DNA from: an uncultured Gemmatimonadales bacterium
Lineage (GTDB): Bacteria; Gemmatimonadota; Gemmatimonadetes; Longimicrobiales; RSA9
Length of the DNA stretch: 64,000 nt
NCBI GenBank assembly: GCA_963741945.1
Contig: CAVUKA010000003.1
Span: 32,001 to 96,000 of the forward strand
Direction: 5' to 3'
Made by a program: the position numbers and the translations under genes. Positions within the stretch are counted from its first letter, which is position 1, and the number at the start of each line of letters is the position of its first letter. Under the pieces are notes generated by a model. That model was not told where the DNA came from and ran no database searches. It was given only the letters and a program-made list of their open reading frames with translations. Below are positions 30,610 through 45,114 of the stretch, in pieces.

Positions 30610-31551
30610 ATGAAAGACAATAGCCACGCAGGAGACATCCACGCGCTGCTGGGTCCCGAGGCGGGCCGCCGCTGGCGGCTCGCCCTGGAGCTCGGCCCCA
30701 CGCTGGCCCGCGTCACGACCCGCCCCACCGTCCTTGCCCGAGTGGGCCGCTCCGTCGGGGAGATGTTCGCCGGCCGCGGCGTGGTGGTGCTGCGTCGCGA
30801 CGCCACTTCAGGGTGGACGGCGGCGTGGCCGGAGCGGCCGGTGCTCCCGGCGCGGGAGCTACCCCACCTGCCTCGTCTGGACGAGGCGGGGGTTTGGGAC
30901 ACGCGGGCGGAGCCGGCGGCGGTCCCGGGCGCGTGGGCGGCGGCGGCCGCCGCGCTGGACGCGCCGATCCTGGTCCACGTGCCGCTGAGCGCCACGGGGC
31001 TCGTGGTGCTGGGGATGGGTGCGGGCGAGGGCGTGGGCGCGGACGAGTGGCCGCTGCTGCTCACCGTCGCCCGGACGGCGGGCCGGGCGCTGGGCGCCGT
31101 CGAGGACGGGGCGGGCCGGCTGCGCAGCGCGCTCACGGACCCGGCCACGGGGCTCCCCAACCGGCTGTACCTGGATCTGGTGCTGGAGCGCTACATGGCC
31201 GCGGCGCGGCGGGGCGAGCCGCTGTCTGCGCTCCTGATCCAGCGGGCGACGCCGGGCGACGCGCCGGCCTCCTCGCCGCCGGCCCGCTGGGCCGACGCCA
31301 TCCACGAGGCCGTGCGCGAGTCGGACGTGGTGGGCGCGCTCGAGGACGGCCGCTTCCTGGTGCTGCTCACCCGCTGCGGCAACGGCGGCGGGCGCCACGT
31401 GGTCTACCGGCTGCGCCAGCGGCTCGGGCCGGAGCGCCAGTTCCACGCGGGCATCGCCGAGTTCGGGCCGGGCGCGACGTCCGCGGACGCACTGGTCGCC
31501 GCTGCCGGGGAGGCGCTCAGGGCCAGCCAGCGGAGGATGGTGCCGGGCTGA
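30610..31551 (+). CDS. Degenerate GGDEF-domain protein
   Basis: LTDPATGLPNR opens the GGDEF fold; RESD I-site kept; active site reads EDGRF; the first Asp metal ligand is replaced (LLIQ). Confidence 0.75.
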   Translation: MKDNSHAGDIHALLGPEAGRRWRLALELGPTLARVTTRPTVLARVGRSVGEMFAGRGVVVLRRDATSGWTAAWPERPVLPARELPHLPRLDEAGVWDTRAEPAAVPGAWAAAAAALDAPILVHVPLSATGLVVLGMGAGEGVGADEWPLLLTVARTAGRALGAVEDGAGRLRSALTDPATGLPNRLYLDLVLERYMAAARRGEPLSALLIQRATPGDAPASSPPARWADAIHEAVRESDVVGALEDGRFLVLLTRCGNGGGRHVVYRLRQRLGPERQFHAGIAEFGPGATSADALVAAAGEALRASQRRMVPG

Positions 31552-31637
31552 GGGATTCGGCGCGGAAGGGGTGCTGGCCGGAAAAGGGCGCGAAGATCGC
31601 TGTCCGCGCTGCCGCCGGAGGGAGCCGGCGAAAGATG

Positions 31638-32294
31638 TCAGCTGGACGGGTGGAGCGGCGGGTCGGACCAGACGGTGTCCACCTGGACGGCCGTCGCCTG
31701 CGAGCTCTGGATGTAGGTCTTGAAGCGGCCGATGTCGGACTGGCCGACCTTCAGGGTGTCACCCGCTTCGGAGTGGTAGTAGGTGTCGCCCGTGGTGGGG
31801 ATCCGGAAGTAGACCTCGTACGCGTTCACCGGCACGGCCCCGGTGTTCTCCACCCGGTACTCCGCCTCCACGAACGTGGAGTCCCCCTCTTCCGAGTGCG
31901 CGTTCCAGAAGCTGGTGACCGTCACGTCCAGCGCCGCGGTGGTCTCGGTGGAGTCCTCCGCCTGGAGGTAGATCGACGCTTCCGCGCTTTGCTCCGCCCG
32001 CACCGCCACCGATACGGTGTTGGCCGTGTAGCCGGCCTTCCTCGCCGCCACCTGGTAGGTCCCCGTCTCCAGGTCCTGGATCGTGAAGTTCCCCTGGGCG
32101 TCGGTGACCAGCGCCTCGGAGGCCGGCGTGGTCGTGATGCTGGCGCCGGCGATGGCCGCGCCCGTCTCGTAGTCCAGGACGCGCCCCTCAATGTCGCCGT
32201 AGGCGGAAGGGTCGAGGGTGGCCTCCTTGCAGCCGAACGCGCCGGCCAGGAGGAGCAGGGCGGCCGCGCCCGCCGAACGGTGTATGCGTGTCAC
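31638..32294 (-). CDS. Lipoprotein with carboxypeptidase-regulatory-like and Ig-like domains (last gene of the curli cluster)
   Basis: Lipobox AFG-C; GDIEGRVLDYETGAAIAGASI...TDAQGNFTIQDLETGTYQVAARKAGY. Confidence 0.8.
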   Translation of the reverse strand: MTRIHRSAGAAALLLLAGAFGCKEATLDPSAYGDIEGRVLDYETGAAIAGASITTTPASEALVTDAQGNFTIQDLETGTYQVAARKAGYTANTVSVAVRAEQSAEASIYLQAEDSTETTAALDVTVTSFWNAHSEEGDSTFVEAEYRVENTGAVPVNAYEVYFRIPTTGDTYYHSEAGDTLKVGQSDIGRFKTYIQSSQATAVQVDTVWSDPPLHPSS

Positions 32295-32331
32295 TGTGGT
32301 GCTTCTTCCGGTGTGTCGTTGCGTTGCGTGG

Positions 32332-32964
32332 TCAGTTGCCGATCGGGACCACGATCGGGTTGTTCTCGACCCGGACCTCCATGCCGTCCCCGTGCTGCTG
32401 GATCCCCACCAGCGGCCCGGTGCCGGTCTGGATCGCCAGGTTGTTGCTGCCGTCCTGCACGATGCCGTTGGCGCCCGTCAGGTCCAGCCCGTTCCCGTGG
32501 TACTCCAGGTAGTACTGGTTCCCGTCGCCCAGCTGCTGGACGTCGAGCGCGTTGGACGACCCGTAGAGCCACGCGCCCAGGCGATTGTCGCTCCCGGTCT
32601 GAAGCGCCAGGATCTGGTTGAACGACCCCTCCTGGTAGAGCACGCCAATGTTGCGCTGCCCGGTCTGGGTCAGCGACGCGGCGTTGAAGTCCCCGATCTG
32701 CTGGACCACGGCCGTGTTGCCGTCCCCCGTCCTGGCGACGTCGCCCGCCATGAGCGCGGCCGGCGTGACGATCGGGCCCGAGACGTTGGCCAGGTCGAGG
32801 AGCGAGAGGATCTGCACGTTCTGCGACGCCGGGAGCTGCTGGCCCGTGGCCTGCACCACCAGCGCCTCCGTCGCGCCCGTGGTGCCCTGTCCCGACAGCC
32901 CGCCCGCCGCCACTGCGGCGAGCGCGGCGGCCGTCACGACGATCTTCCGCCTCCGTGCAACCAT
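32332..32964 (-). CDS. csgB: Minor curlin (CsgB-like)
   Basis: Signal peptide then N-x5-Q-x-G-x2 repeats (NTAVVQQIGDF, NAASLTQTGQR, NIGVLYQEGSF, NALDVQQLGDG); follows csgG; alternative start 32994. The B versus A assignment rests on position. Confidence 0.7.
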   Translation of the reverse strand: MVARRRKIVVTAAALAAVAAGGLSGQGTTGATEALVVQATGQQLPASQNVQILSLLDLANVSGPIVTPAALMAGDVARTGDGNTAVVQQIGDFNAASLTQTGQRNIGVLYQEGSFNQILALQTGSDNRLGAWLYGSSNALDVQQLGDGNQYYLEYHGNGLDLTGANGIVQDGSNNLAIQTGTGPLVGIQQHGDGMEVRVENNPIVVPIGN

Positions 32965-32993
32965 CACCACCTCCACTCGTGAGCGTCGGAGCA

Positions 32994-34385
32994 TCAGTAG
33001 AAAGTCAGCCCGAGCGTCAGGTTCCACACCGAGTCGTTGCCGTGCCCGGTCTTCACTCCGTCGATACCGTCCATGAGCGCGTACTGGTTGAACAGCCCCA
33101 GGCTCACGCCCACCGACGGCGACAGCAGGCGCTCGATCCCGCCCCCGAGCGTCGCCACCGGGAACAGCTGCTCGCCGAAGTCGCCCAGCTGCGATTCCAC
33201 GTTCGGCTTCAGCACCCCGGCCCCCACCCGCAGGAAGGGCGAGGTCGTGGCGTGCGGGAGGAGGAAATACGTGGCGTCCAGCCCGACGGACACGGCCGTC
33301 CACTGGAAGCCACCCTCCACGCCGATGTCGCCGCCGTACGCGCTCAGGCCGAGGCCCCAGCGGGACGTCGGCATCCAGCGAAGCGACAGCCCGCCCGCCG
33401 GGCGGACCAGCGCGTTCCTGTAGTTCCCCTGGTACTGCCTCGCCCCGCCTTCCACCGAGAGCGAGAAGCCGCTCCGGTCACGGTCGTTCCGAAGCCCGTA
33501 CGGTCCGATCCCGGCCGCCGCGACCTTCGACCGCTCGTACCCGGCGAACGCCGGCCCGTGAATCTCAGCCGGGTCCTCCAGCGCCCACAGGCCCTCCTTC
33601 ACCCCTTCGATCACCAGCTCCTTCACCGCCTCCTGGATCGCTTCCGTGACCGCGACCACCGGCGGCTCGTTGTACGAGTACCCGACTTCCGACTCCAGCA
33701 GCCGGTCCACGTCCACGAAGCGGAAGATCCCAGCGTCCACCTGCTGCGACGCGATGGTCTTGCTGGTGGTCACCGTCCTGAGGACGCGACCGGTCTGGGT
33801 CGAGACCGCCCGCAGGTAGACCGTCACCTGGTCCTGGCGGAACTTCCCCGAGCCGCCCGCCCCGAAGTAGCGGACGCCCACGCCGCCCGTGAGCAGGTTC
33901 GTGTCGTACCCGACGATCCCGCCTTCGAGGATGATCCCGGCGTAGAGAAGGGGCGGGAGCGGCCCCAGCTTCTGCCCTTCAGGCCCTTCGTACTGCGCCC
34001 GGATCGACTGGATGATCTGCCGCTCGTTCAGCAGGTTCGACAGCCCCTCCCGCTCGATCGGCACGAACCACCCCGACTCCTCCAGCGCCTTGATCAGGAT
34101 GGACGTGGCCCCCTGCGTCACCGCCGTGGACCACGACGCCATGTTCTCCGCCGCCTTGTACTGCCCCGTCTCGTCACGGAACCGGTACACCGCCGCCACC
34201 ACCTGCTCCTTCGGCGCCGGGAGGCTGCGGAGCTCCTCGGTGATGCGCGTGGGCGAGGCGGGGATCGGCCGCGCCGTCTCCAGCGGGGCCGCGTAGTTGG
34301 CACAGGCGGCGGCGACGAGGCCGAACCAGGCGAGGACGGCCCTATTCAACATCTTACCACAAGCTCGCGTCGGATCGTATCGCAT
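32994..34385 (-). CDS. csgG: Curli secretion channel CsgG with C-terminal beta-barrel extension
   Basis: Lipobox AAA-C; VAAVYRFRDETGQYK, STAVTQGA, WFVPIEREGLSNLLNERQIIQ, EGGIVGYDTN, EPPVVAVTEAI; start is 34385 or 34352. Confidence 0.93.
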   Translation of the reverse strand: MRYDPTRACGKMLNRAVLAWFGLVAAACANYAAPLETARPIPASPTRITEELRSLPAPKEQVVAAVYRFRDETGQYKAAENMASWSTAVTQGATSILIKALEESGWFVPIEREGLSNLLNERQIIQSIRAQYEGPEGQKLGPLPPLLYAGIILEGGIVGYDTNLLTGGVGVRYFGAGGSGKFRQDQVTVYLRAVSTQTGRVLRTVTTSKTIASQQVDAGIFRFVDVDRLLESEVGYSYNEPPVVAVTEAIQEAVKELVIEGVKEGLWALEDPAEIHGPAFAGYERSKVAAAGIGPYGLRNDRDRSGFSLSVEGGARQYQGNYRNALVRPAGGLSLRWMPTSRWGLGLSAYGGDIGVEGGFQWTAVSVGLDATYFLLPHATTSPFLRVGAGVLKPNVESQLGDFGEQLFPVATLGGGIERLLSPSVGVSLGLFNQYALMDGIDGVKTGHGNDSVWNLTLGLTFY

Positions 34386-34398
34386 GCTGCCAGACTTC

Positions 34399-34833
34399 CT
34401 AGTATTGCGGGATGGTGACCGACGTCTGCTCGCCCGTGAGATTATTCGTGACCAGGACCTGTACGCCACCAAGACCGGGAACGATTTCGATGGTGAAGTC
34501 TCCGAGCTCATATCGACCAGGCTGCGTCAGGTCCAGATTCTCACCGAACCTGTCCATGATCAGTTCCCTGGACAGTGCAGATAGGATCTGCCGCTGCAAT
34601 CCTTGCTGGAAATCCGAGAGCGGATCCCTATTCAAGAAATCAACGTCCGGCGCTCGCTTCTGAGCCTGAGCGTTGCTCAGCAGCCATTGGCCATTCAAGG
34701 GATTTCCGCCGAACGCTGGATTGACGGGATGATAGACGAGTTGCTGGGCGCCGGCTGAATCGGCCAGCACCATGAGTGCGGCCGCGATGACGGCCACACC
34801 GCTCAACGCCCTGGTGACCCTGATACGCTTCAT
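34399..34833 (-). CDS. csgF: Curli assembly protein CsgF
   Basis: Signal peptide then QQLVYHPVNPAFGGNPLNGQWLLSNAQAQ, the conserved CsgF N-terminus. Confidence 0.92.
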   Translation of the reverse strand: MKRIRVTRALSGVAVIAAALMVLADSAGAQQLVYHPVNPAFGGNPLNGQWLLSNAQAQKRAPDVDFLNRDPLSDFQQGLQRQILSALSRELIMDRFGENLDLTQPGRYELGDFTIEIVPGLGGVQVLVTNNLTGEQTSVTIPQY

Positions 34834-34877
34834 TTCTGGTCTCGAATATGAAAGGGACGGGCCGCACCCGTGAACGC

Positions 34878-35480
34878 TCACCTCTGTCCGGAGTCTCCGG
34901 CGGCCGTGCTCATATCCCGCGGCTGGCGACGGATCAATTCTTCCCTCACGTAGGCTGCTGCCTCCTTCCCGAGCATCTCGACGACTTCATACCTTGGCTG
35001 AAGCTGCAGTTGAAAGAGGGCGTCCTCATTGAGAAACACCAAAACGCGACTTCCCAATCCTGGCGACGGCTGCTCCTGGATACGCACTGTGTAATTCGCT
35101 GCTCCATCTGGCGGCTCCCAAGCGCCGTAGAAAATGTCATAGAAATCGCGTCCTACCTTCGTCGCGGTTTCGTCCACGATCAGGCCATCGATCTGCATGT
35201 GTTGCTGAGCCGTGCCGGCGCGCGCTTGTACCTGCTCGGCTTGATGGGAACCCCGTCCTGCCCCGGCAATCGGTCGTACCGACGCCAGGAGATCCCGCGC
35301 CTCGTGGAACGACATTCCGGTGGGCAGCCGCAACAGACCTGAAACAGGGGTATCAGCAGTCAGTTCGTTTGCTGGAAACGCACAGCGTGCATCAGCGGAA
35401 GGCAATGCCGATATCCGCGCAGCCGAATGCGAAACGGCGACAATCAGAAGGCTGCTGACAATCCGCCCCACCTTCACCAT
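34878..35480 (-). CDS. csgE: Curli assembly protein CsgE
   Basis: IDGLIVDETATKVGRDFYDIFYGAW...IQEQPSPGLGSRVLV...LQPR; lies before csgF; start uncertain. Confidence 0.85.
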   Translation of the reverse strand: MVKVGRIVSSLLIVAVSHSAARISALPSADARCAFPANELTADTPVSGLLRLPTGMSFHEARDLLASVRPIAGAGRGSHQAEQVQARAGTAQQHMQIDGLIVDETATKVGRDFYDIFYGAWEPPDGAANYTVRIQEQPSPGLGSRVLVFLNEDALFQLQLQPRYEVVEMLGKEAAAYVREELIRRQPRDMSTAAGDSGQR

Positions 35481-35603
35481 CCACTCTCCAGCCTCAAAGT
35501 CCAACTCCGTGGTAACGTTCTGATGTAGTGCCCGCGAGCGAAAACCTAGAGATCTCGTTTGAACATCTGCACATTCCGCGCACCACTCCCCCTTGAGCGG
35601 AAA

Positions 35604-35633
35604 CTGTGGAGAGTGCTGCAGCACTCTCCACAG
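35604..35633 (-). terminator. Perfect 30-bp palindrome downstream of csgA
   Basis: CTGTGGAGAGTGCTGCAGCACTCTCCACAG is its own reverse complement; TTT follows on the minus strand. Confidence 0.7.
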
Positions 35634-35649
35634 CGGTTCCCTTTGCTGC

Positions 35650-36243
35650 TCAGTTGCTCTGCGTGATGGTGGCCGTGTTGTACGTCCCGGCCTGATCGAT
35701 CACGGCGACGTTCCAATCCGCAACCGCGTTCCAGCCCTGGTGGATCGTGGCGGAGTGGTGACTGCCGTCCTGCAGCACGGTCGCAGCGTTGTGCTGAGCC
35801 CACCCGCCGGTGTTGAAGCCCTGCGCCACGCTGGCGTCGTTGTAATTCCCGGTCTGGGTGATGCCGTAGGTGTTGTAGTACCCATGGCCGCCGTTGGTCC
35901 CCTGACCCGGATCGGCGAAGTTGTAGTTGCCCGTCTGCGTGATCGTAGCCGTGTTGTACCGGGCATCACCGCCGTTGTCGCCATAGCCCTGGCCAAGATA
36001 GGCAACGTTGTACTGGCCAGTCTGCGTGAGCGTGCCCGTATTGCCGATCGCGTAGCCCTGGTCCTGATCAATGATTCCGAGCTTCAGGATCCCCTGGCCA
36101 ATGTACCCGTCGTTGTATGCGCCGTCCTGGGTCATGGTGGCCGTGTTGTGATCGTTCACCTGCTGGATGTAGCCCTCGTTGCTCTGCGCGAACACCGGGG
36201 TGGCACACAGCCCGAAGGCTGCGATAAGAAGGAACTTCCTCAT
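35650..36243 (-). CDS. csgA: Major curlin (CsgA-like amyloid subunit)
   Basis: Signal MRKFLLIAAFGLCATPVFA; repeats NTATMTQDG, NTGTLTQTG, NTATITQTG, NTYGITQTG, NAATVLQDG, NVAVIDQAG; ends NTATITQSN; GAGGAG RBS. Confidence 0.88.
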   Translation of the reverse strand: MRKFLLIAAFGLCATPVFAQSNEGYIQQVNDHNTATMTQDGAYNDGYIGQGILKLGIIDQDQGYAIGNTGTLTQTGQYNVAYLGQGYGDNGGDARYNTATITQTGNYNFADPGQGTNGGHGYYNTYGITQTGNYNDASVAQGFNTGGWAQHNAATVLQDGSHHSATIHQGWNAVADWNVAVIDQAGTYNTATITQSN

Positions 36244-36262
36244 GGTGTGGTGTCTCCTCACG

Positions 36263-36295
36263 AAAAAGTGGGTTGCCGTTTCTCGGCAGTGACCC
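36263..36295 (-). terminator. Leader intrinsic terminator (riboswitch expression platform)
   Basis: GGGT(CAC)TGCCG-AGAAA-CGGCAACCC-AC-TTTTT between the aptamer and the csgA RBS. Confidence 0.65.
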
Positions 36296-36400
36296 TTCTT
36301 CGGCGACCGGACGATCTCGTGTGCACGAGTCTGCAGCCTCGCCATGAGATTCCTGGCTTTGCGGACCGGCTTCGCAGCCGGGGTGCCTTTTTCGGAAGAG
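36296..36400 (-). ncRNA. Cyclic di-GMP-I (GEMM-I)-like riboswitch aptamer
   Basis: CTTCCGAAAAAGGCACC-CCGGCT-GCGA-AGCCGG-TCCGCAAAGCC-AGGAATCTC...GAGATCGTCCGGTCGCCGAAG: GNRA-capped P2, CGCAAAGCC junction, P3 and 3' GCCGAA, matching GEMM-I order by eye. Confidence 0.72.
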
Positions 36401-36642
36401 AGACTTGTTGCGCACTTCCGTGCGCTCGAGTCGGCACGACACCGGAGATCCCGGCCGGTGGCTCGCGCCGTCGGGCCACTCCTACTCCACGTTCCGTTCC
36501 GGCGGTCTACGGAGCGTCAAAGGCGCGTCAAATATGCTGGGAGACAATGCGTTGAGGATCGGTCGGACCGCGGCGGATCACGTCCGGCCGGCACGATTCC
36601 GGGCACCCGGACGCGTTTCGTTACAACGGCCGGCCCGGGCCT

Positions 36643-38025
36643 TCAGTCCCCCATCTCCCCCACGTCAATGTCGTACTTCCGGATCAGGCGGTCGAGGCGG
36701 GGTCGTGAGATCTCGAGGATGCGGGCGGCCTGGCGCTTGTTGCCGCCGGTGCGCTCGAGGGCGGCGAGGAGCTGGCGGCGCTCGGCGTCGTCGAGGGTGG
36801 CGGTGGAGAGGGAGTCCCCGGCCTCGAGGACGCCGCCCCCGCCCCTGCCGATCCCCAGGTGCTCGACGCGCAGCGCGGTGCCCTGGGCGAGGACGGCGGC
36901 GCGGGCGATGGCGTTCTCGAGCTCGCGCACGTTGCCGGGCCAGTCGTGCTCGCGGAGTGCGCGCATGACGTCGGGCGGGATGACCTTCCCGGGGAGCCCG
37001 AGGGAGCGGATGGCGCGGGTGAGGAAGTGGTCGGCGAGGGCCGGGATGTCGCCCGGGCGGTCGCGCAGCGGCGGGACGTGGATCTCGACCACGCGGAGCC
37101 GGTAGTAGAGGTCTTCGCGGAACGAGCCGTCGCGGACCATGGCCTCGACGGGGCGGTGCGTGGCGGCGATGACGCGGGCCAGGGCCTGACGCGGCTGCTC
37201 GCTTCCGACGGGGTAGAACTCCTTCTCCTGGAGGACACGCAGGAGCTTGGCCTGGAAGGAGGGGGCGGTGTCGCCGATCTCGTCGAGGAAAATGGTCCCG
37301 TGCCCCGCCAGCTCGAAGCGCCCCTTCCGGTCCGACACCGCGCCGGTGAACGACCCCCTCACGTGGCCGAACAGCTCGCTCTCCAGCAGCTGGTCGGGAA
37401 CGGAAGTGCAGTTCACGGCGACGAACGGCTCCGCGGCGTGACCGGAATGCTCGTGGATGGCCCGGGCGACGACCTCCTTCCCGGTCCCGGTCTCCCCCCG
37501 GATCAGCACCGGCGCGGCCGTGCCCGCCACCCGGCCGATGGTCTTGTAGATCTCCAGCATGGCCCGCTCGCGGCCGATGATCCTCGGCGACGACGACGCG
37601 TAACGCCCCTTCTCGCCGTCCCCCTCCTCGACCGACTCCCCCGCCGCCTTCTCCCGCGCGCGACGGTCCGCGAAGCAGCGCGTGAGCAGGTCGTCCAGCT
37701 CCTCCGGGTCGAGCGGCTTGGCCAGATAGTCGTACGCGCCGGCGCGGATCGCCTCCACCGCCGTCTCCATCTCGTCCTTCCCCGTCACCACCACCACGTC
37801 CACGCCGGCGTTCGTGGCCTTCAGCCGCGCGAGCAGCTCCAGCCCGCTCAGCCCGGGCATGTACAGGTCCGTGACCACCACGCCGGGGCGGAAGTCAGCC
37901 ACCTCGCCGAACGCCTGCTCCGCGCTGTCCGCCGTCCGGACCGCGTACCCCTCGCGGGCCAGCCAGAACTCGAGCGTGTCCCGCACGTCCGCGTCGTCGT
38001 CCACCACCAGGACCTTCCGCTCCAT
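36643..38025 (-). CDS. Sigma-54-dependent response regulator (REC-AAA+-HTH)
   Basis: [52 protein letters not shown]. Confidence 0.93.
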   Translation of the reverse strand: MERKVLVVDDDADVRDTLEFWLAREGYAVRTADSAEQAFGEVADFRPGVVVTDLYMPGLSGLELLARLKATNAGVDVVVVTGKDEMETAVEAIRAGAYDYLAKPLDPEELDDLLTRCFADRRAREKAAGESVEEGDGEKGRYASSSPRIIGRERAMLEIYKTIGRVAGTAAPVLIRGETGTGKEVVARAIHEHSGHAAEPFVAVNCTSVPDQLLESELFGHVRGSFTGAVSDRKGRFELAGHGTIFLDEIGDTAPSFQAKLLRVLQEKEFYPVGSEQPRQALARVIAATHRPVEAMVRDGSFREDLYYRLRVVEIHVPPLRDRPGDIPALADHFLTRAIRSLGLPGKVIPPDVMRALREHDWPGNVRELENAIARAAVLAQGTALRVEHLGIGRGGGGVLEAGDSLSTATLDDAERRQLLAALERTGGNKRQAARILEISRPRLDRLIRKYDIDVGEMGD

Positions 38026-38244
38026 GGCCACGCCGCCTCCCGCCTCCGGGAAAAGAGTCATCCTTGATGCCTGTCATCTTTCACAACACCCGATACCAGC
38101 TTATCTTGCGTGGCGCAACTTCGCGCGTCCCGCGCTGCGCTCCGGTCGGCCCATCGGCCGACCCCAACCCCCTGGCGCTCCGGGACGTAGTCGGCCCCTG
38201 TCTGCACTCTCCGGCGCCTGGACGCCGGCAGCGCCACGCACCCC

Positions 38245-40752
38245 ATGGTGGAACAGCAAGAAATCGAAGCGACGAGCGGTCTCCGCGATCGTCTCGGCCG
38301 GGCCGCGCGCCTGATCCGCGCCCGCGCCGTGGCGGTGGTGGAGCGTGGCGCGGGCGACGCCATCCACGTACTCGGCTCCTGGGGGCTCGAGGAAGAGGAC
38401 GCGGCGTCGCTGGAGCGCTCGCTGGAGTGGCTGGACGAGGCGCTTGCGGAGGACCGGCCGCTGGTCCGGTTCGACGGCCGCGCGGAGACGTCGGAGATCG
38501 CCATCGCGCCGCTGCGAGGGCGGCTGCTGGCGTGGGCGAGGATCCACCCCCCGGAGCTGCTGACGGACCATCACCTGGAGCTGCTGCGGGAGCTGGCGGA
38601 CGCGGCGTGGGAGATCGAGCGGCTGACCGCGGAGCCCGGCGAGCCCGGCTCCGGGGACGGTGCGGGGGACGATTCCGGGGAGCCCGGCGCCCGCCCGGCG
38701 TCGCCCTCCCCGGCGCCGTCCTCGCCGGCCGCCTCCAACGGCGCGGGCGCGACGACGGAAGCGCTGGAGCCGGAGGCAGTCGCCCGGCTGCTGGCGGGCC
38801 CGGTGCTGTCGTCGGGAACCACCCTGGGGACGTACCTGATCCGGGCGGGCCGGCTGGCGCACGTGAACGCCACGCTGGCGAAGCGGCTGGGGTACTCGCC
38901 GGAGGAGGTGGTGGGCCGGGACGCGCTGGCCATCGTACACCCGGAGGACCGCGCGAAGGTGGCGCGCAAGATCGAGGAGCGGCGCGGCGGACGGGTGGAG
39001 CGGGTGACGTACACGTTCCGGGCCGTTTCCCGCGATGGCGGGGTGGTGCACCTGGAGGCGCACGGCGGCACGCTTCGGCTGCACGGCGAGCCGGCGCTGG
39101 GCGGCGTGGTGGTGGACGTGACCAGCCGGACGCGGGCGCTGGAAGCGCTGCGGGCGTCGGAGTCGCGGTTCGCCCGCATCGTGGCGCTCTCGCGCGACGC
39201 CACGCTGTACCTGGAGTCGGACGGGACGGTGGTGCTGTTCAACACGGCGGCGGAGCGGCTGTTCGGTGTGACCGCCCGCGACGCCCTTGGGCGGTCGCTG
39301 GAGGAAGTCTCGCCGGAAGTGGCGGCCGCGGTGGCGTCGCATGATGAGGAGCACCCCGCGCTACCCCGGACGGCGGAAGTCCGGCGTCGCGACGGCTCCG
39401 CGTTCTGGGCGGAGGTCTGGGCGGCCGCGGGCGGGCGCGGCGAGGAGGGGGAGCTGCGCGTGGTGATGGTGCGGGACGTGACGGAGCAGCGGCGGCACGA
39501 GCGGGCGCGCGACCGGCTGCTGCGGCTGGAGCGGGACGAGCGGTTCCGGGCCGAAGTGTCGCACATGCGGGCGCAGTTCCTCGATGACCTCACGGCCGAG
39601 CTGGCGGCGTCGCCCCCCGACCCGCCGACCATCCTCTCGCGCCTGGTCCAGCTCGCCATCCCCGTGGCGGCCGACTACGCCCTCTGCTACCGCTTCCGCG
39701 ACGACGCCCCGCCGGACGTGCTGGCCGCGGCCACCATGGCGGCCACGCGGCTCGCCGTGCTGGAGGACCCGCCCGCGCTCCCGGAGCTGTCCTGGGAGGA
39801 AGAGCCCGGCGGGTGGCTGTGCTCGCCCGGGGCCGACCCCCGGGTGCGTGCCTTCTTCGATCACCACGCGCGCCGCCACGAGGCCCGCGCGGTGCAGCTG
39901 CTGCCACTCCTCGATGGGGAGCGGGCGCACGGCGTCCTGGTGCTGGGGCACACGTACCACGTGACGGACTCCGAGCTGGCGACGCTCGGGCAGCTGGGGC
40001 GGGACGTGGCCACGCGCGTTTCCATGATCCTCGAGCACGGCCGCCTGTACCACGATGCGCGCACGGCCGCGCGGCTGCGGGACCAGGTGCTGGCCGTGGT
40101 GTCGCACGACCTGCGCAACCCGCTCAACGTCATCGGGTTCACCACCGACTCGCTGCTCCGCCACTGGCCCGAGGACCCCGCGGAGATGGAAGCGGTGCGC
40201 CGGCAGGTGGGTGTCATGCGACGCTCGGCCGAGCGGGCGAAGCGGCTGGTCCGCGACCTCCTCGACTACGCGCAGATCGAGGCCGGAATCCTGGCTGTCG
40301 ACCCCGTCCCGTGCGACACCGCCGCCCTCCTTCGCGAGGCCCGCGACTTCCGCCGCCCCCTGGCCGACCAGCGCTCCATCCGCCTCGAGATCCAGCTCGA
40401 CGACGACCTCCCCGCCGTCCTCGCCGACGCCGAGCGCGTGCTCCAGGTCCTCGGCAACCTCCTCGACAACGCCTTCCGCCACACGCCTCCCGAGAGCGCC
40501 GTGCGCCTCCGCGCCGCCGCCGCGGGCGACACCGTCCGGATCGAGGTGGAGGACGAGGGCCCCGGCGTCCCAGCAGACGAGCGGGAGCGGATCTTCGACC
40601 GGTTCTCCCGCGGCCGCGGCGGCGGCAAGGTGGGCGCCGGCCTCGGCCTCGCCATTGCCCGTGGCATTGTCGCCGCCCACGGCGGCACCCTCGAGGTCAC
40701 CGGCCCCGCCCACCAAGGCGCCACCTTCCGGTTTACGCTGCCCGTGGCCTGA
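38245..40752 (+). CDS. Cytoplasmic PAS-PAS-GAF histidine kinase
   Basis: VNATLAKRLGYSPEEVVG..VHPEDR, FNTAAERLFG, VSHDLRNPL, NLLDNA, DEGPG, GAGLGL; no clear TM helix. Confidence 0.92.
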   Translation: MVEQQEIEATSGLRDRLGRAARLIRARAVAVVERGAGDAIHVLGSWGLEEEDAASLERSLEWLDEALAEDRPLVRFDGRAETSEIAIAPLRGRLLAWARIHPPELLTDHHLELLRELADAAWEIERLTAEPGEPGSGDGAGDDSGEPGARPASPSPAPSSPAASNGAGATTEALEPEAVARLLAGPVLSSGTTLGTYLIRAGRLAHVNATLAKRLGYSPEEVVGRDALAIVHPEDRAKVARKIEERRGGRVERVTYTFRAVSRDGGVVHLEAHGGTLRLHGEPALGGVVVDVTSRTRALEALRASESRFARIVALSRDATLYLESDGTVVLFNTAAERLFGVTARDALGRSLEEVSPEVAAAVASHDEEHPALPRTAEVRRRDGSAFWAEVWAAAGGRGEEGELRVVMVRDVTEQRRHERARDRLLRLERDERFRAEVSHMRAQFLDDLTAELAASPPDPPTILSRLVQLAIPVAADYALCYRFRDDAPPDVLAAATMAATRLAVLEDPPALPELSWEEEPGGWLCSPGADPRVRAFFDHHARRHEARAVQLLPLLDGERAHGVLVLGHTYHVTDSELATLGQLGRDVATRVSMILEHGRLYHDARTAARLRDQVLAVVSHDLRNPLNVIGFTTDSLLRHWPEDPAEMEAVRRQVGVMRRSAERAKRLVRDLLDYAQIEAGILAVDPVPCDTAALLREARDFRRPLADQRSIRLEIQLDDDLPAVLADAERVLQVLGNLLDNAFRHTPPESAVRLRAAAAGDTVRIEVEDEGPGVPADERERIFDRFSRGRGGGKVGAGLGLAIARGIVAAHGGTLEVTGPAHQGATFRFTLPVA

Positions 40753-41087: not shown

Positions 41088-43034
41088 TCAGATCTCGATC
41101 TGCGCCCCGATTTCCACGACCCGGTTGGGTGGCAGCCGGAAGAACGAGGTGGCGCCGCGAGCGTTCCGGCTCATGAGGACGAAGAGCCGTTCGCGCCAGA
41201 TGGCCATGCCCTTGACCTTCTTGGAGGCGATGAGGTTCTCGCGGCCGAGGAAGAAGGTGGTCTCCATCGGCTTGAGGTTGAGTCCCTGCTTGCCGTGGAG
41301 CATGGCGAGGGCGCGGGGGATGTTGACGTCCTCCATGAAGCCGTAGTGGAGGACGACGGAGTAGAAGCCGGCCTCGCGCGGTACCACGGTGCAGCGGTCG
41401 GCGAGGGGGACGTGGGGCGCCTCCTCGGTGACCACGGCGAGGCAGACCACCTGTTCGTGGAGCGCCTTGTTGTGCTTCAGGTTATGGAGCAGGGCGCGGG
41501 GCGTGGCGTCGGTGTCGCCGAACATGAAGACGGCGGTTCCGGCGACGCGGTGGGGCGGGTGGTCCTCGATGCTGCGGAGGAAGTCGTCGAGGGGGAGCTC
41601 GTTGCGTCCGATCCGCTCGGCCAGGATGGCGCGGCCGCGCTTCCAGGTGGTCATGAGCGTGAACACGCCGGCGGCCACGAGGAGCGGGAACCAGCCGCCG
41701 GCGGGGATCTTGGTGAGGTTGGCGCCGAAGAAGGAGAGGTCGATGACCATGAAGAAGGCGGCGAGCCCCAGCGCCAGGGGGAGCGGCCAGTTCCAGCGCT
41801 CGCGGGCCAGCACGTAGAAGAGGACGGTGGTGATGACCATGGTGGTGGTCACGGCCACGCCGTACGCGGCGGCGAGGTTGCTGGAGCTGCCGAAGCCGAT
41901 GACGAGGCCGATGCACGCCACCATGAGCGCCCAGTTGACGGCGGGGACGTAGATCTGCCCCATTTCCGTGTGGGACGTGTGCTCGATGTTCATGCGGGGC
42001 ATGTAGCCGAACTGCACCGACTGCATGGCGAGGGAGAACGACCCGGAGATCACGGCCTGCGACGCGATGACGGTGGCCGCGGTGGCCAGCAGGACCAGCG
42101 GGTAGAGCGCCCAGTCGGGCCCCATCCTGTAGAACGGGTTCTCGATGGCGGCCGGGTTGCGCATGAGCAGCGCGCCCTGGCCGAAGTAGTTGATGAGGAG
42201 CGCGGGGAGCACGAAGGCGAACCAGGTGAGGCGGATCGGTCGTCGCCCGAAGTGGCCCATGTCGGCGTACAGCGCCTCGCCGCCCGTCACCACGAGGAAG
42301 ACGCTCCCGAGCACCAGGATCCCTTTCAGTCCATTGGCGGCGAAGAACGAGGCTGCGTGCAGCGGGCTGAGGGCGGCGAGGACGGCCGGGGTCTGGAGGA
42401 TCTGCCACGCGCCCAGCGTCGCCAGGACGAGGAACCAGACCATGGTCACCGGGCCGAAGACGCGCCCCACGCCCTCCGTTCCCCGTCGCTGGAAGAGGAA
42501 GAGGCCGATGAGGATGCCGATGGTGATGGGGATGACCACGGGCTCGAAGACCGGCGTGGCCACGCCGAGCCCTTCCACGGCGGAGAGCACGCTGATGGCG
42601 GGGGTGATCATGCCATCGCCGTAGAGGAGCGCGGCGCCGAAGAGGCCGAGGAGGATGAGGCGCCACTTGCCGCCCTTCCGGCCCGCGCCCATGGGGGTGA
42701 CGAGCGCCGTGAGGGCGAGGATCCCCCCCTCGCCGCGGTTGTCGGCCCGCAGGATGAAGACCAGGTACTTGAGGGAGATCACGAGGACCAGCGCCCAGAA
42801 GATGAGCGAGAGGACGCCCATGATGTTGTTGGGCGTGACGGGCATGCCGTAACTCTCGTGGAAGCTCTCGCGCAGCGCGTAGAGCGGGCTGGTGCCGATG
42901 TCGCCGTAGACCACGCCCAGCGTGGCCAGGGATAGGACGGCGAGGCGCTTGCCCGTGGGCTCCGCCGGAGGGTGGTGCCCGGCGGTCTCGCTCCCGCGTC
43001 GCTCCAGGTCCTTCGGGTCCGCGTCCGTGCTCAT
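41088..43034 (-). CDS. kup: Potassium transporter Kup
   Basis: LGVVYGDIGTSPLYA, GEGGILAL, ITPAISVLSAVEG, GGEALYADMGHFG, NYFGQGA, LHNLKHNK. Confidence 0.96.
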   Translation of the reverse strand: MSTDADPKDLERRGSETAGHHPPAEPTGKRLAVLSLATLGVVYGDIGTSPLYALRESFHESYGMPVTPNNIMGVLSLIFWALVLVISLKYLVFILRADNRGEGGILALTALVTPMGAGRKGGKWRLILLGLFGAALLYGDGMITPAISVLSAVEGLGVATPVFEPVVIPITIGILIGLFLFQRRGTEGVGRVFGPVTMVWFLVLATLGAWQILQTPAVLAALSPLHAASFFAANGLKGILVLGSVFLVVTGGEALYADMGHFGRRPIRLTWFAFVLPALLINYFGQGALLMRNPAAIENPFYRMGPDWALYPLVLLATAATVIASQAVISGSFSLAMQSVQFGYMPRMNIEHTSHTEMGQIYVPAVNWALMVACIGLVIGFGSSSNLAAAYGVAVTTTMVITTVLFYVLARERWNWPLPLALGLAAFFMVIDLSFFGANLTKIPAGGWFPLLVAAGVFTLMTTWKRGRAILAERIGRNELPLDDFLRSIEDHPPHRVAGTAVFMFGDTDATPRALLHNLKHNKALHEQVVCLAVVTEEAPHVPLADRCTVVPREAGFYSVVLHYGFMEDVNIPRALAMLHGKQGLNLKPMETTFFLGRENLIASKKVKGMAIWRERLFVLMSRNARGATSFFRLPPNRVVEIGAQIEI

Positions 43035-43287
43035 TCGCTCCGTTGTCTCCCCCGCAGCCACCCCGATCGTCGCCAGTCATGCGCCGCGTGCGGCGCTGCG
43101 GCGCTGGCGCCGGGAAAGCCTCGCGCCGGCGACGGAATTCCGCAACCGCATCCCATGGCGGCGCCCTGGTGTCGGGGGACACGGACGCGGGACACGTGCC
43201 GGGAGTGCGGAGTGGAAGGAAAGGTGTCAGGCGAGGACGATGGCGGGGGCGATCGTGGCGGATCTGTCGGATCGTCTGCGTGGCCGG

Positions 43288-44214
43288 TCAGCGCTCCCCG
43301 CCCGACCCGGCACTTCCGGAGCGGGGCGGGTGCCCGTGGAAGAGCACGTCGACGGCGTCAGCGAAGAGGCGTCGCATGGCCGGACCGTCCACGCGTGCCC
43401 GGACCTGAACCTCCCACTCGCCCCCGTCCTGTCGCACCGCGTGGTAGAGAGCACTGGGCGTGGTCAGCTCCACCTCCCCCTCCTCCTCGCCTTCCAGCGG
43501 GACGTCCAGCCCCCCGCCGCCATCCTGGTCATCCTCGACGCGGCGCGCGGCAGCGGCCTCCGGGACCCGGGCGGCCTGAACTTCCGCTTTCGCTTCGGCC
43601 CGCTTCGCCCGCTCGGCCTCCGCGCGTGCCGCTCGACGCCGCTCGATCTTCCGGCGCCGCATGCGGGCGGCCTTCCACGGGCCCACGTAGAACGTGCGGT
43701 CGGGATAGGGCCAGCCGAAGCGCTCGCGCACGGCCTCGAGTGCGTCGCTACCCTCGGAGCCATCCTGAATCCGGCTGTCGCAGAAGCGGATGAGGAGGTT
43801 GCGCTGCTCGAGATCAAGGTCCGTGTAGCGGTCGGGGTAGTCCAGCTCGCCGGCCTCGACGACGGCGCCATCATCCACGTCCGCGGTGTCCGCCCCCGGA
43901 ACCGGGGACCCTCCACCGGCCGATCCCCCCGCCACCGCCCCCGCCTGCCGGAGCGTGGAGGCCGTGCCGACGAGCCGCCCCACCATGATGCGGCCGGCCT
44001 CCCGCTCCAGGCGGGGGTAGGCGCGCCTGGCCGCCCGTCTGAGCTGGACGTGGTCCGCGTCCTGGCCCGCCCGGGCCAGGAGCTCGCGGGCCACCGCCTC
44101 CCGGTAGCTCCGATCCCGCTTCAATCGGTCGACGTCGAGCTCCGCCGATGGGCCGCTGGCACGCTTCATCTCAATGCGCTGGTGACGAGGAAACTCAATC
44201 GGCACCCTGCTCAT
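43288..44214 (-). CDS. Hypothetical protein
   Basis: Open frame with host-like GC3 codons and a charged helical segment; fills the kup-pepE gap; follows a consensus sigma-54 promoter; start uncertain (44268/44214/44169). Confidence 0.65.
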   Translation of the reverse strand: MSRVPIEFPRHQRIEMKRASGPSAELDVDRLKRDRSYREAVARELLARAGQDADHVQLRRAARRAYPRLEREAGRIMVGRLVGTASTLRQAGAVAGGSAGGGSPVPGADTADVDDGAVVEAGELDYPDRYTDLDLEQRNLLIRFCDSRIQDGSEGSDALEAVRERFGWPYPDRTFYVGPWKAARMRRRKIERRRAARAEAERAKRAEAKAEVQAARVPEAAAARRVEDDQDGGGGLDVPLEGEEEGEVELTTPSALYHAVRQDGGEWEVQVRARVDGPAMRRLFADAVDVLFHGHPPRSGSAGSGGER

Positions 44215-44289
44215 TCCGGCAAGCGGGCGGTGGCCGGCCTGTCGGTCCGGCATCGGAGGGTCCTGCACAAGAAGGGCGTGGATCAGTCA

Positions 44290-44306
44290 TGCAATGCAGG
44301 TGCCAG
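44290..44306 (-). promoter_or_regulatory. Sigma-54 (-24/-12) promoter
   Basis: CTGGCAC-CTGCA-TTGCA matches YTGGCAC-N5-TTGCW. Confidence 0.8.
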
Positions 44307-44382
44307 ATTCGGAGGCCATGGCCACGGCCCGCCTGCGCCACTCCGCCTTTCGGGACCATGCCGTCAATCGTACGTTCACGCC

Positions 44383-45114
44383 ATGATCCACGACCTCCTT
44401 CTGCTCAGCAACTCGGCCCTGCACGGACGGGGATTCCTGGGACACGCACTGGGCGCCATCGAAGCGTTCCTGGACGGTCGGACGACCATCCATTTCGCGC
44501 CGTTCGCCCTGGCCGACCACGACGGCTACACGGAGAAAGTGCGTGCGGCGCTGGCGCCGCTCGGTGTGGAGGTGGCAGGCCTCCATGCCGCCGGCGACGC
44601 CCGCGCGGCGGTGGAGGCGGCGGACGTGGTGTTCGTGGGCGGCGGGAACACGTTCCGCCTGCTGCGGGACATCCACCGGCTGGGGCTGCTGGAGCCGGTG
44701 CGGCGCCGGGTGGCCGGGGGCACACTGGCGTACATGGGCTCGAGCGCGGGAACGAACGTGGCGTGCCCCACCGCCCGCACCACCAACGACATGCCCATTG
44801 TCGAGCCGCCGTCGCTGGAAGCGTTCGGGCTCGTCCCGTTCCAGATCAACCCGCACTACCAGGACCCCGAGCCCGGGTCCACGCACATGGGCGAGACCCG
44901 CCAGCAGCGGATCCGCGAGTTCCTGGAAGAGAACGACGTGCCGGTGCTGGGGATCCGCGAGGGCGCGTGGCTCCGCCGTGCCGGCGACCGGCTCACGCTC
45001 GAAGGCGACACCGGCGCGCTGCTTTTCCGGCGCGGCCGGGAACCCGAAGCGTTCGGCCGCGGTGACGACATCTCCGCGCTGCTGCGCGTGCCGGCGCGAT
45101 TCGATCAGCCGTGA
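44383..45114 (+). CDS. pepE: Dipeptidase E
   Basis: LLLLSNS, FVGGGNTFRLL, GSSAG, TTNDMPIV, PFQINPHY, HMGETR. Confidence 0.95.
   Translation: MIHDLLLLSNSALHGRGFLGHALGAIEAFLDGRTTIHFAPFALADHDGYTEKVRAALAPLGVEVAGLHAAGDARAAVEAADVVFVGGGNTFRLLRDIHRLGLLEPVRRRVAGGTLAYMGSSAGTNVACPTARTTNDMPIVEPPSLEAFGLVPFQINPHYQDPEPGSTHMGETRQQRIREFLEENDVPVLGIREGAWLRRAGDRLTLEGDTGALLFRRGREPEAFGRGDDISALLRVPARFDQP

Follow-up and report, generated by a model that had tools for sequence, protein, structure and literature searches.

The window analysed here, a 64,000-nucleotide (nt) stretch of contig CAVUKA010000003.1 from an uncultured Gemmatimonadales bacterium, carries what is, by sequence, a complete curli operon, preceded directly by the aptamer of a class I cyclic di-GMP (c-di-GMP-I) riboswitch. 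The explanation that we favour, and consider likely, is that of a single-operon curli system that was acquired horizontally and is controlled by this riboswitch acting as an ON switch. Curli are a model functional amyloid, and their control, where studied, runs through a long protein cascade made up of RpoS, MlrA, c-di-GMP modules and CsgD. Given the position of the riboswitch directly before the first gene, fibre production in this organism is probably turned on by c-di-GMP itself, instead of by CsgD as in Escherichia coli.

The initial annotation had proposed six co-oriented genes encoding a functional-amyloid secretion system, and the sequence comparisons support both proposals. All six minus-strand open reading frames (ORFs) are present and pass the Pfam cut-offs (Table 1), with the CsgG, CsgF, CsgE and curlin-repeat families all above threshold. 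NCBIfam returns the same Csg names at scores below its E. coli-tuned equivalog cut-offs (the csgE product matches CsgE with E = 5.9e-15). The alignment of E. coli CsgG (3x2r_D) with the window's CsgG covers residues 14-270 of 277 (E = 2.3e-65) and retains the column of the lipidated lipobox cysteine. The E. coli CsgF chain 6l7a_J aligns to the window's CsgF with E = 6.5e-11, and the N-terminal CsgF segment that sits in the CsgG channel in solved CsgG-CsgF complexes is conserved here. Two start codons are candidates for csgG, the ATG at 34385, as in the called protein (P0014), or the ATG at 34352. Signal peptides, read from the sequence, are present on both curlins and are of the Sec type in the csgA-like one. 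The intergenic gaps measure 29-46 nt, except for 169 nt between csgA and csgE, a spacing that fits one operon. In the whole genome, curlin repeats occur at this locus only, with both copies here. Judged by these homologies, the locus is a genuine curli (type VIII secretion) operon. By analogy with the known system, the curlins would be exported by Sec and then pass through the CsgG channel, capped by CsgE on its periplasmic side and joined by CsgF at the cell surface, to polymerise outside the cell.

Both csgC and csgD had been reported as missing from the window. For csgC this extends to the genome level, as the CsgC family (PF10610) has no match across the whole genome, which is 96.7% complete. 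For csgD, no LuxR-type gene stands beside the operon among the neighbouring ORFs scanned with family profiles; a family model cannot decide the matter, since csgD belongs to a very large regulator family (Dueholm et al. 2012, in the portion available to us).

A riboswitch-like leader had also been suggested, and a full-length c-di-GMP-I aptamer was indeed found there by Rfam, as the only Rfam match in the window. It ends 55 nt before the csgA ATG (36243), has a GNRA-type loop on P2 and contains a 26-nt insertion in P3. Our own model (R1), which was built from six sequences of this lineage and is therefore narrow, gives 100.5 bits at 36289-36408. In a six-copy consensus fold, some P1 pairs survive changes on both sides. 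At column 22 of our alignment (A2), a ligand-contacting position before P2, the curli aptamer has a G, as do its orthologues in the two related genomes described below; we take this G to select c-di-GMP over cyclic GMP-AMP (cGAMP). On this evidence the element is a genuine c-di-GMP-I riboswitch aptamer as far as sequence and covariation can tell. The earlier proposal that the operon is wired directly to c-di-GMP gains weight from two features of the sequence, the location of the aptamer directly before csgA and its joint occurrence with the operon in both of those genomes.

The genome contains five c-di-GMP-I riboswitches, the other four of which are on contig C1. All five precede genes for exported proteins; the other four stand before lipoprotein genes, encoding an S8 subtilase-PKD protein, a SpaA_2-domain protein and two proteins without an assigned family. 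Three of these four share the P2 hairpin and junction of the curli aptamer almost letter for letter, and the copies are alike in their aptamer-hairpin-Shine-Dalgarno (SD) layout within approximately 60 nt of the start codon. The curli copy differs in being the only one before an amyloid secretion operon and in having its own 26-nt P3 insertion. Three of the riboswitches lie within 6 kb (G000:C1:14830-20287, where G000 denotes this genome), each before a large lipoprotein gene, and one of the lipoproteins has the SpaA_2 domain, which is prealbumin-like; from the sequence, this region is a putative small riboswitch-controlled island of surface proteins. The copy at G000:C1:16281-16368 (L017 1501-1588), in front of the S8 subtilase-PKD lipoprotein gene, has an A at column 22 where the others have G, presumably the signature of 3'3'-cGAMP-selective variants.

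The sequence between aptamer and start codon suggests how the switch could work. Three G of the P1 3' strand, read from the sequence, double as the base of the terminator-like hairpin before csgA, so that P1 and the full hairpin are mutually exclusive. In the free minimum free energy (MFE) structure, the U-run and the SD site are sequestered by base pairing with the P1 5' strand and the adjoining A-rich junction. This duplex between the 5' flank and the SD region has an energy of -20.8 kcal/mol (z = -6.7), and none of 500 shuffled sequences was as strong; two sister riboswitches with the same complementarity gave z = -4.9 (1/500 shuffles) and z = -3.0 (2/500). The probability of the SD being unpaired does not exceed 0.02 in the free ensemble and ranges from 0 to 1.0 per base with the aptamer enforced. 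Enforcing P1, P2 and P3 shifts the ensemble energy from -70.4 to -58.0 kcal/mol, leaves the SD partly open and reduces the hairpin to its upper pairs. Since conserved junction nucleotides are tied up in the competing helix, ligand binding should be incompatible with it, and we read the element, as modelled from these folds, as rather probably an ON switch acting on translation and perhaps also on termination. At low c-di-GMP, the P1 5' strand and junction would pair with the U-run and SD, and the hairpin followed by five U would form as well, so that csgA would be neither fully transcribed nor translated. With c-di-GMP bound, P1 would close, take three G from the hairpin base and free the SD. 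The SD of the orthologous leader from another family is complementary to a different aptamer strand, namely one strand of P3.

To describe the distribution of the system we refer to a congener as G001, to a genome from another family of the order as G276, and to a further genome of the phylum as G054. A search for the curli-specific CsgF detected it in 3 of 401 genomes sampled from the order (G000, G001 and G276, representing 2 of 127 genera) and in 3 of 401 sampled from the phylum (G000, G276 and G054); curli are rare in this lineage. All three CsgF-bearing genomes of the order have the riboswitch. In G276, an aptamer (52.3 bits) is followed by csgA-E-F-G, a second curlin and the lipoprotein gene, an order identical to that in the window, with 65% identity for csgG over all 452 residues and 55% for the lipoprotein. 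In G001, leader and aptamer are identical to those in the window, and the contig starts inside csgF. The congener's proteins have diverged to 75% (CsgF), 55% (CsgE) and 53% (CsgA) identity, compared with 92% for the flanking regulator and 90% for Kup, a pattern suggestive of a fibre cassette that has been exchanged or evolves fast, behind an unchanged switch. When window 34878-36243 is aligned with L110 (G001:C1) 590-1946, the nucleotide alignment stops inside the CsgA signal peptide (window 36174). Because no CsgG match was obtained for G001, we considered that it might have no operon; this reading was rejected, as csgA, csgE and csgF are present at the contig start, and csgG was not found in the G001 assembly. 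The G054 locus has csgE-F-G and then curlins, and no riboswitch at the Rfam gathering score.

Beyond the phylum, the named genomes with the closest CsgG (45-47% identity) are those of Kryptoniota and a "Bacteroidetes bacterium", and the NCBI names among the best CsgG protein matches include Bacteroidota, Rubricoccaceae and Balneolales. In metagenomes, 553 of the 599 pattern matches among those listed encode a CsgG relative, and 4792 of the 8000 candidates scored in the protein collection reach E <= 1e-20; the best 120 CsgG relatives are 375-486 amino acids (aa) long. Among loci of the synteny survey with at least 1.1 kb of upstream sequence, csgF lies just upstream of csgG in 63/63 and csgE upstream in 61/63. 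No c-di-GMP-I riboswitch reached the Rfam gathering score in 17 related loci outside the order (L001-L004, L026 and 12 metagenome loci). Across the 86 sources of that survey R1 recovered G276 only, plus a chance-level match of 13.4 bits inside a csgG gene, and absence of the riboswitch is informative solely for the 37 of 86 loci whose sequence reaches 4 kb beyond csgG on the upstream side.

A tree of CsgG groups G000 and G276 as sisters (100/99) within a metagenome clade, and G054 falls elsewhere, on a long, weakly supported branch. The GC content is 0.59-0.61 over 34500-36500 versus approximately 0.70 around it. Together these data suggest that a Bacteroidota-type curli cluster was acquired horizontally and subsequently placed behind a riboswitch of the kind native to the recipient. 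In csgF the third-position GC is 0.68, compared with at least 0.9 for csgG, the lipoprotein gene and most neighbours, and the atypical composition is confined to the 5' half of the operon (34399-36500).

Two further features distinguish the machinery from that of E. coli. The alignment to E. coli CsgG stops at residue 274, and approximately 170 residues remain. This C-terminal extension is shared by 68 of the 78 loci that could be evaluated, and homologous extensions match the outer-membrane barrel family PF13505 (OMP_b-brl) in 38 of 44 aligned cases (best E = 4e-10); precomputed PF13505 assignments exist for 11 of the 120 best full-length CsgG relatives. The profile of the extension matches the OprF barrel (4rlc_A) weakly (E = 0.021), its nearest language-model clusters in a protein atlas include OMP_b-brl (0.96), and eight amphipathic strands were counted by eye. 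By sequence, we take the extension to be, probably, an OmpA-like barrel of eight strands in the outer membrane, with one such barrel on every CsgG protomer.

The last gene of the operon encodes a lipoprotein with a CarboxypepD_reg domain, a transthyretin-like sandwich; its C-terminal 100 residues match no Pfam family, the only hit being a sub-threshold one to CBM_2 (E = 0.13). Of the 32 loci with at least 4 kb of downstream sequence, 26 have a homologue downstream of csgG in the same orientation, and in 18 of 55 it lies within 300 nt. L002 ("Bacteroidetes bacterium") and L003 (Kryptoniota) have such a downstream homologue, bearing out the statement in the initial annotation that a carboxypeptidase-like-domain gene follows such clusters in Bacteroidota. 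Judged from this synteny, curli systems of this kind have the lipoprotein as a conserved partner, and sequence searches place both it and the long CsgG widely among environmental, Bacteroidota-like curli clusters. Neither the extension nor the lipoprotein partner was found in the curli literature searched. Searches for a CsgG-barrel fusion likewise returned nothing relevant, the supplements and figures of Dueholm et al. 2012, which may show gene lengths, being outside their scope. Tentatively, then, long CsgG and lipoprotein could mark an undescribed structural subtype of curli common in environmental, Bacteroidota-like bacteria, in which each protomer has its own eight-stranded barrel and nine of these ring the nonamer, the lipoprotein replaces CsgC/CsgH as a periplasmic brake on untimely amyloid formation or as fibre anchor, and, in the present case, the operon was borrowed by this lineage and then rewired to a native c-di-GMP riboswitch, linking second messenger to amyloid without a protein regulator.

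A number of observations weigh against the explanation as a whole. The ON direction derives from thermodynamic folds only, and when the aptamer is enforced in RNAfold, a new, weaker local stem covers the csgA start codon. The sequencing runs listed for the locus are three DNA runs of a single study, with no RNA run among them. The complementarity between 5' flank and SD is not significant in 3 of 6 leaders (G276, C1:16281 and C1:677374), the U-run is absent from the G276 leader, and a simple terminator scan did not call the hairpin before csgA. No sigma-70-like promoter was returned by a scan of 31000-37000, and no sigma-54 site (TGGCAC-N5-TTGC, up to 3 mismatches) was found before the aptamer on the minus strand of 36400-36650. 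What argues for a horizontal origin comes down to the rarity of curli in the lineage, the low GC of 34500-36500 and a tree in which G054 stands apart, and Pfam returns no family at E <= 10 for the extension in the window's own CsgG. Finally, most transcripts might stop at the strong hairpin behind csgA, which makes riboswitch control of csgEFG, csgB and the lipoprotein gene conjectural. Some of these points would fit an OFF switch, in which the ligand lets hairpin and U-run terminate transcription and curli are made at low c-di-GMP. The covered start codon is one of them, the hairpin before csgA lies almost entirely outside the aptamer, as in many OFF platforms, and several of the class I c-di-GMP riboswitches characterised so far turn expression OFF. 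We nevertheless regard this as unlikely: P1 and the full hairpin exclude each other via the three shared G, the competing helix joins conserved junction nucleotides to the SD, the G276 leader has no U-run, and matrix fibres are generally induced by c-di-GMP. Moreover, curlin-associated c-di-GMP-I elements are read as ON in the available portion of Sherlock et al. 2022 (PMC9481103).

As regards the reach of the riboswitch, from the sequence we expect it to control at least csgA and probably the whole operon. It is possible, though we doubt it, that the riboswitch governs csgA only, the 14-bp hairpin acting as a terminator and csgE-F-G-B and the lipoprotein gene being transcribed from a promoter of their own in the 169-nt gap. 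That gap is long relative to the 29-46 nt between the other genes, the hairpin is strong and begins only 16 nt beyond the csgA stop, and the leader is identical between congeners while csgA and csgE diverge strongly. Set against this, the hairpin is followed by just three U and was not called by the terminator scan, no promoter-like site is present in the gap, and partial terminators after the major subunit gene are common in fibre operons; the hairpin is likely such a partial terminator or an mRNA stabiliser that would set the csgA:csgEFG ratio. That the aptamer senses 3'3'-cGAMP or another dinucleotide is a much slighter concern. Class I aptamers do include cGAMP-selective variants, and the sister riboswitch with A at the position equivalent to G20 (column 22) is in this very genome, but the curli aptamer and its G276 and G001 orthologues keep the G that presumably confers specificity for c-di-GMP. 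Least probable of all is that the product is a non-amyloid repeat adhesin exported by a CsgG-like channel, with the locus not being a true curli system. Many CsgG family members are non-curli paralogues (Dueholm et al. 2012, available portion), and relatives of this genome gave many weak CsgG matches, in a tally that takes in the unpublished genomes G016 and G017, on which none of our claims depends; against such an adhesin, the curli-specific CsgE and CsgF are both encoded next to CsgG, both subunits bear curlin repeats, and the two accessory genes accompany csgG in nearly all of the related loci with enough upstream sequence.

The operon is flanked by a two-component system on one side and by a convergent gene on the other (Table 1). 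Control by the adjacent sigma-54-dependent activator was considered and rejected, as the sole nearby consensus match falls inside the aptamer; over the whole window there are 154 sigma-54-like matches, below the shuffle mean of 197. The window's only perfect consensus (TGGCAC-N5-TTGCA), at 44290-44305 on the minus strand, lies inside a long ORF (42922-45114, plus strand), approximately 1.2 kb upstream of the minus-strand kup. In G276, the gene that immediately follows the lipoprotein gene, in the same orientation, encodes a regulator with 54% identity to the sigma-54-dependent one (L025 10765-12114). In the convergent protein with a partial GGDEF domain, the GG[DE]EF site is degenerate by eye and the RxxD motif is kept, so from its sequence it may be a c-di-GMP receptor, not a cyclase; no homologue was found beside the G276 operon. 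Farther neighbours include menaquinone genes, a beta-lactamase-family protein and Kup.

Table 1. The curli operon, its leader and its flanking genes, in window coordinates.
Feature	Position	Strand	Basis or remark
Convergent protein, partial GGDEF	30610-31551	+	First ~40 profile positions, 33.3 bits
Lipoprotein, N-terminal CarboxypepD_reg	31638-32294	-	PF13620, 58.2 bits (cut-off 32.3), residues 35-111
Second curlin (csgB-like), 210 aa, signal peptide	32332-32964	-	PF07012, 36.4 bits, four stretches
csgG, whole gene	32994-34352 or 34385	-	PF03783, 217.5 bits (cut-off 20.8)
CsgG C-terminal extension, ~170 aa, aromatic last residue	32994-33506	-	Homologue profiles
CsgG lipoprotein channel domain	33528-34385	-	PF03783; alignment to PDB 3x2r_D
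csgF, surface accessory protein	34399-34833	-	PF10614, 127.6 bits
csgE, periplasmic specificity cap	34878-35480	-	PF10627, 72.2 bits
14-bp hairpin, 16 nt past csgA stop	35603-35634	-	MFE fold
csgA-like curlin, 197 aa	35650-36243	-	PF07012 Curlin_rpt, 72.8 bits (cut-off 20.7), six stretches/repeats
Shine-Dalgarno GAGGAG, 10 nt before csgA ATG	36254-36259	-	Sequence
Five-U run after hairpin	36263-36267	-	Sequence
Terminator-like hairpin, 4 + 5 bp, 3-nt bulge	36270-36295	-	Sequence, MFE structures
P1 3' strand GAAGGG	36293-36298	-	RNAalifold consensus of six riboswitches
c-di-GMP-I aptamer	36299-36397	-	RF01051, 46.6 bits (gathering score 35), model positions 1-87 of 87; E 5.9e-6 (search of the whole window with 4227 families)
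P1 5' strand CUCUUC	36395-36400	-	RNAalifold consensus of six riboswitches; pairs with 3' GAAGGG
Sigma-54-dependent response regulator	36643-38061	-	Directly upstream of curli leader
PAS histidine kinase, divergent	38245-40752	+	Beyond response regulator

A complete curli operon behind one c-di-GMP aptamer would be a minimal, portable switch from second messenger to amyloid for engineered living materials, and a simple natural test of whether c-di-GMP alone suffices to commit a cell to fibres. The barrel and lipoprotein, found in thousands of environmental proteins, suggest that the channel known from E. coli is a pared-down form of a machine with more parts. They bear on how CsgG inserts into the outer membrane and on what takes the place of CsgC/CsgH in most bacteria. 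In a protein atlas, the two top clusters for the window's MenD are commonest in Actinomycetota and the third in Gemmatimonadota; the outer-membrane components make Actinomycetota unlikely. Provided that the assignment to Gemmatimonadota is right, the operon also extends curli to a lineage outside the four phyla in print. Those are, in the available text of Dueholm et al. 2012 (PMC3521004), the Proteobacteria and Bacteroidetes with one member each of the Firmicutes and Thermodesulfobacteria; a 2026 review, as far as available, speaks of at least four phyla, and Sleutel et al. 2023, in the part accessible to us, cite Dueholm for curli phylogeny. A literature search for curli in Gemmatimonadetes returned nothing relevant, and the words "riboswitch", "Gemmatimonadetes" and "C-terminal" do not occur in the portion of the Dueholm text available.

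With the curli of E. coli and Salmonella, the present system shares two curlin-repeat subunits, CsgE, CsgF and the lipoprotein channel CsgG. It departs from them in its layout, with one co-oriented operon led by a curlin gene in place of the divergent csgBAC and csgDEFG, and in having neither CsgC in the genome nor a CsgD-like neighbour, an RNA sensor replacing the CsgD cascade; in addition, its CsgG carries the barrel-like extension of approximately 170 aa and the cluster includes the CarboxypepD_reg lipoprotein. Part of this is familiar from elsewhere, since the available text of Dueholm et al. 2012 describes a single csgBAEFG operon in some Alteromonadales and the lack of csgC and csgD in Bacteroidetes, which it presents as usual there and in other groups; the lack of csgD and csgC is thus ordinary outside the Gammaproteobacteria. 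The Bacteroidetes-type clusters, which likewise have no csgC or csgD, arrange the machinery genes as csgE-csgF-csgG too, with a long CsgG and a lipoprotein gene downstream. They differ in that a curlin gene leads the operon here, and in that none of the related loci examined outside the order has a c-di-GMP-I riboswitch. As for the RNA, Sherlock et al. 2022 (PMC9481103), in the portion available, describe tandem glycine and c-di-GMP-I riboswitches, two of whose six associated ORFs are curlin-related, including CsgG, and read the tandem as an ON/ON AND gate that commits cells to biofilm; in the literature searched, no other paper links a riboswitch with curlin. Those tandems have in common with the present leader a class I c-di-GMP aptamer before curlin-related genes, whereas here a single aptamer, without a glycine riboswitch, stands before a complete csgA-EFG-B operon. 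The association of riboswitch and curlin therefore has precedent; what is new is that a single aptamer stands before a complete operon and is conserved across three genomes from one order, together with the description of the fused CsgG barrel and its conserved lipoprotein.

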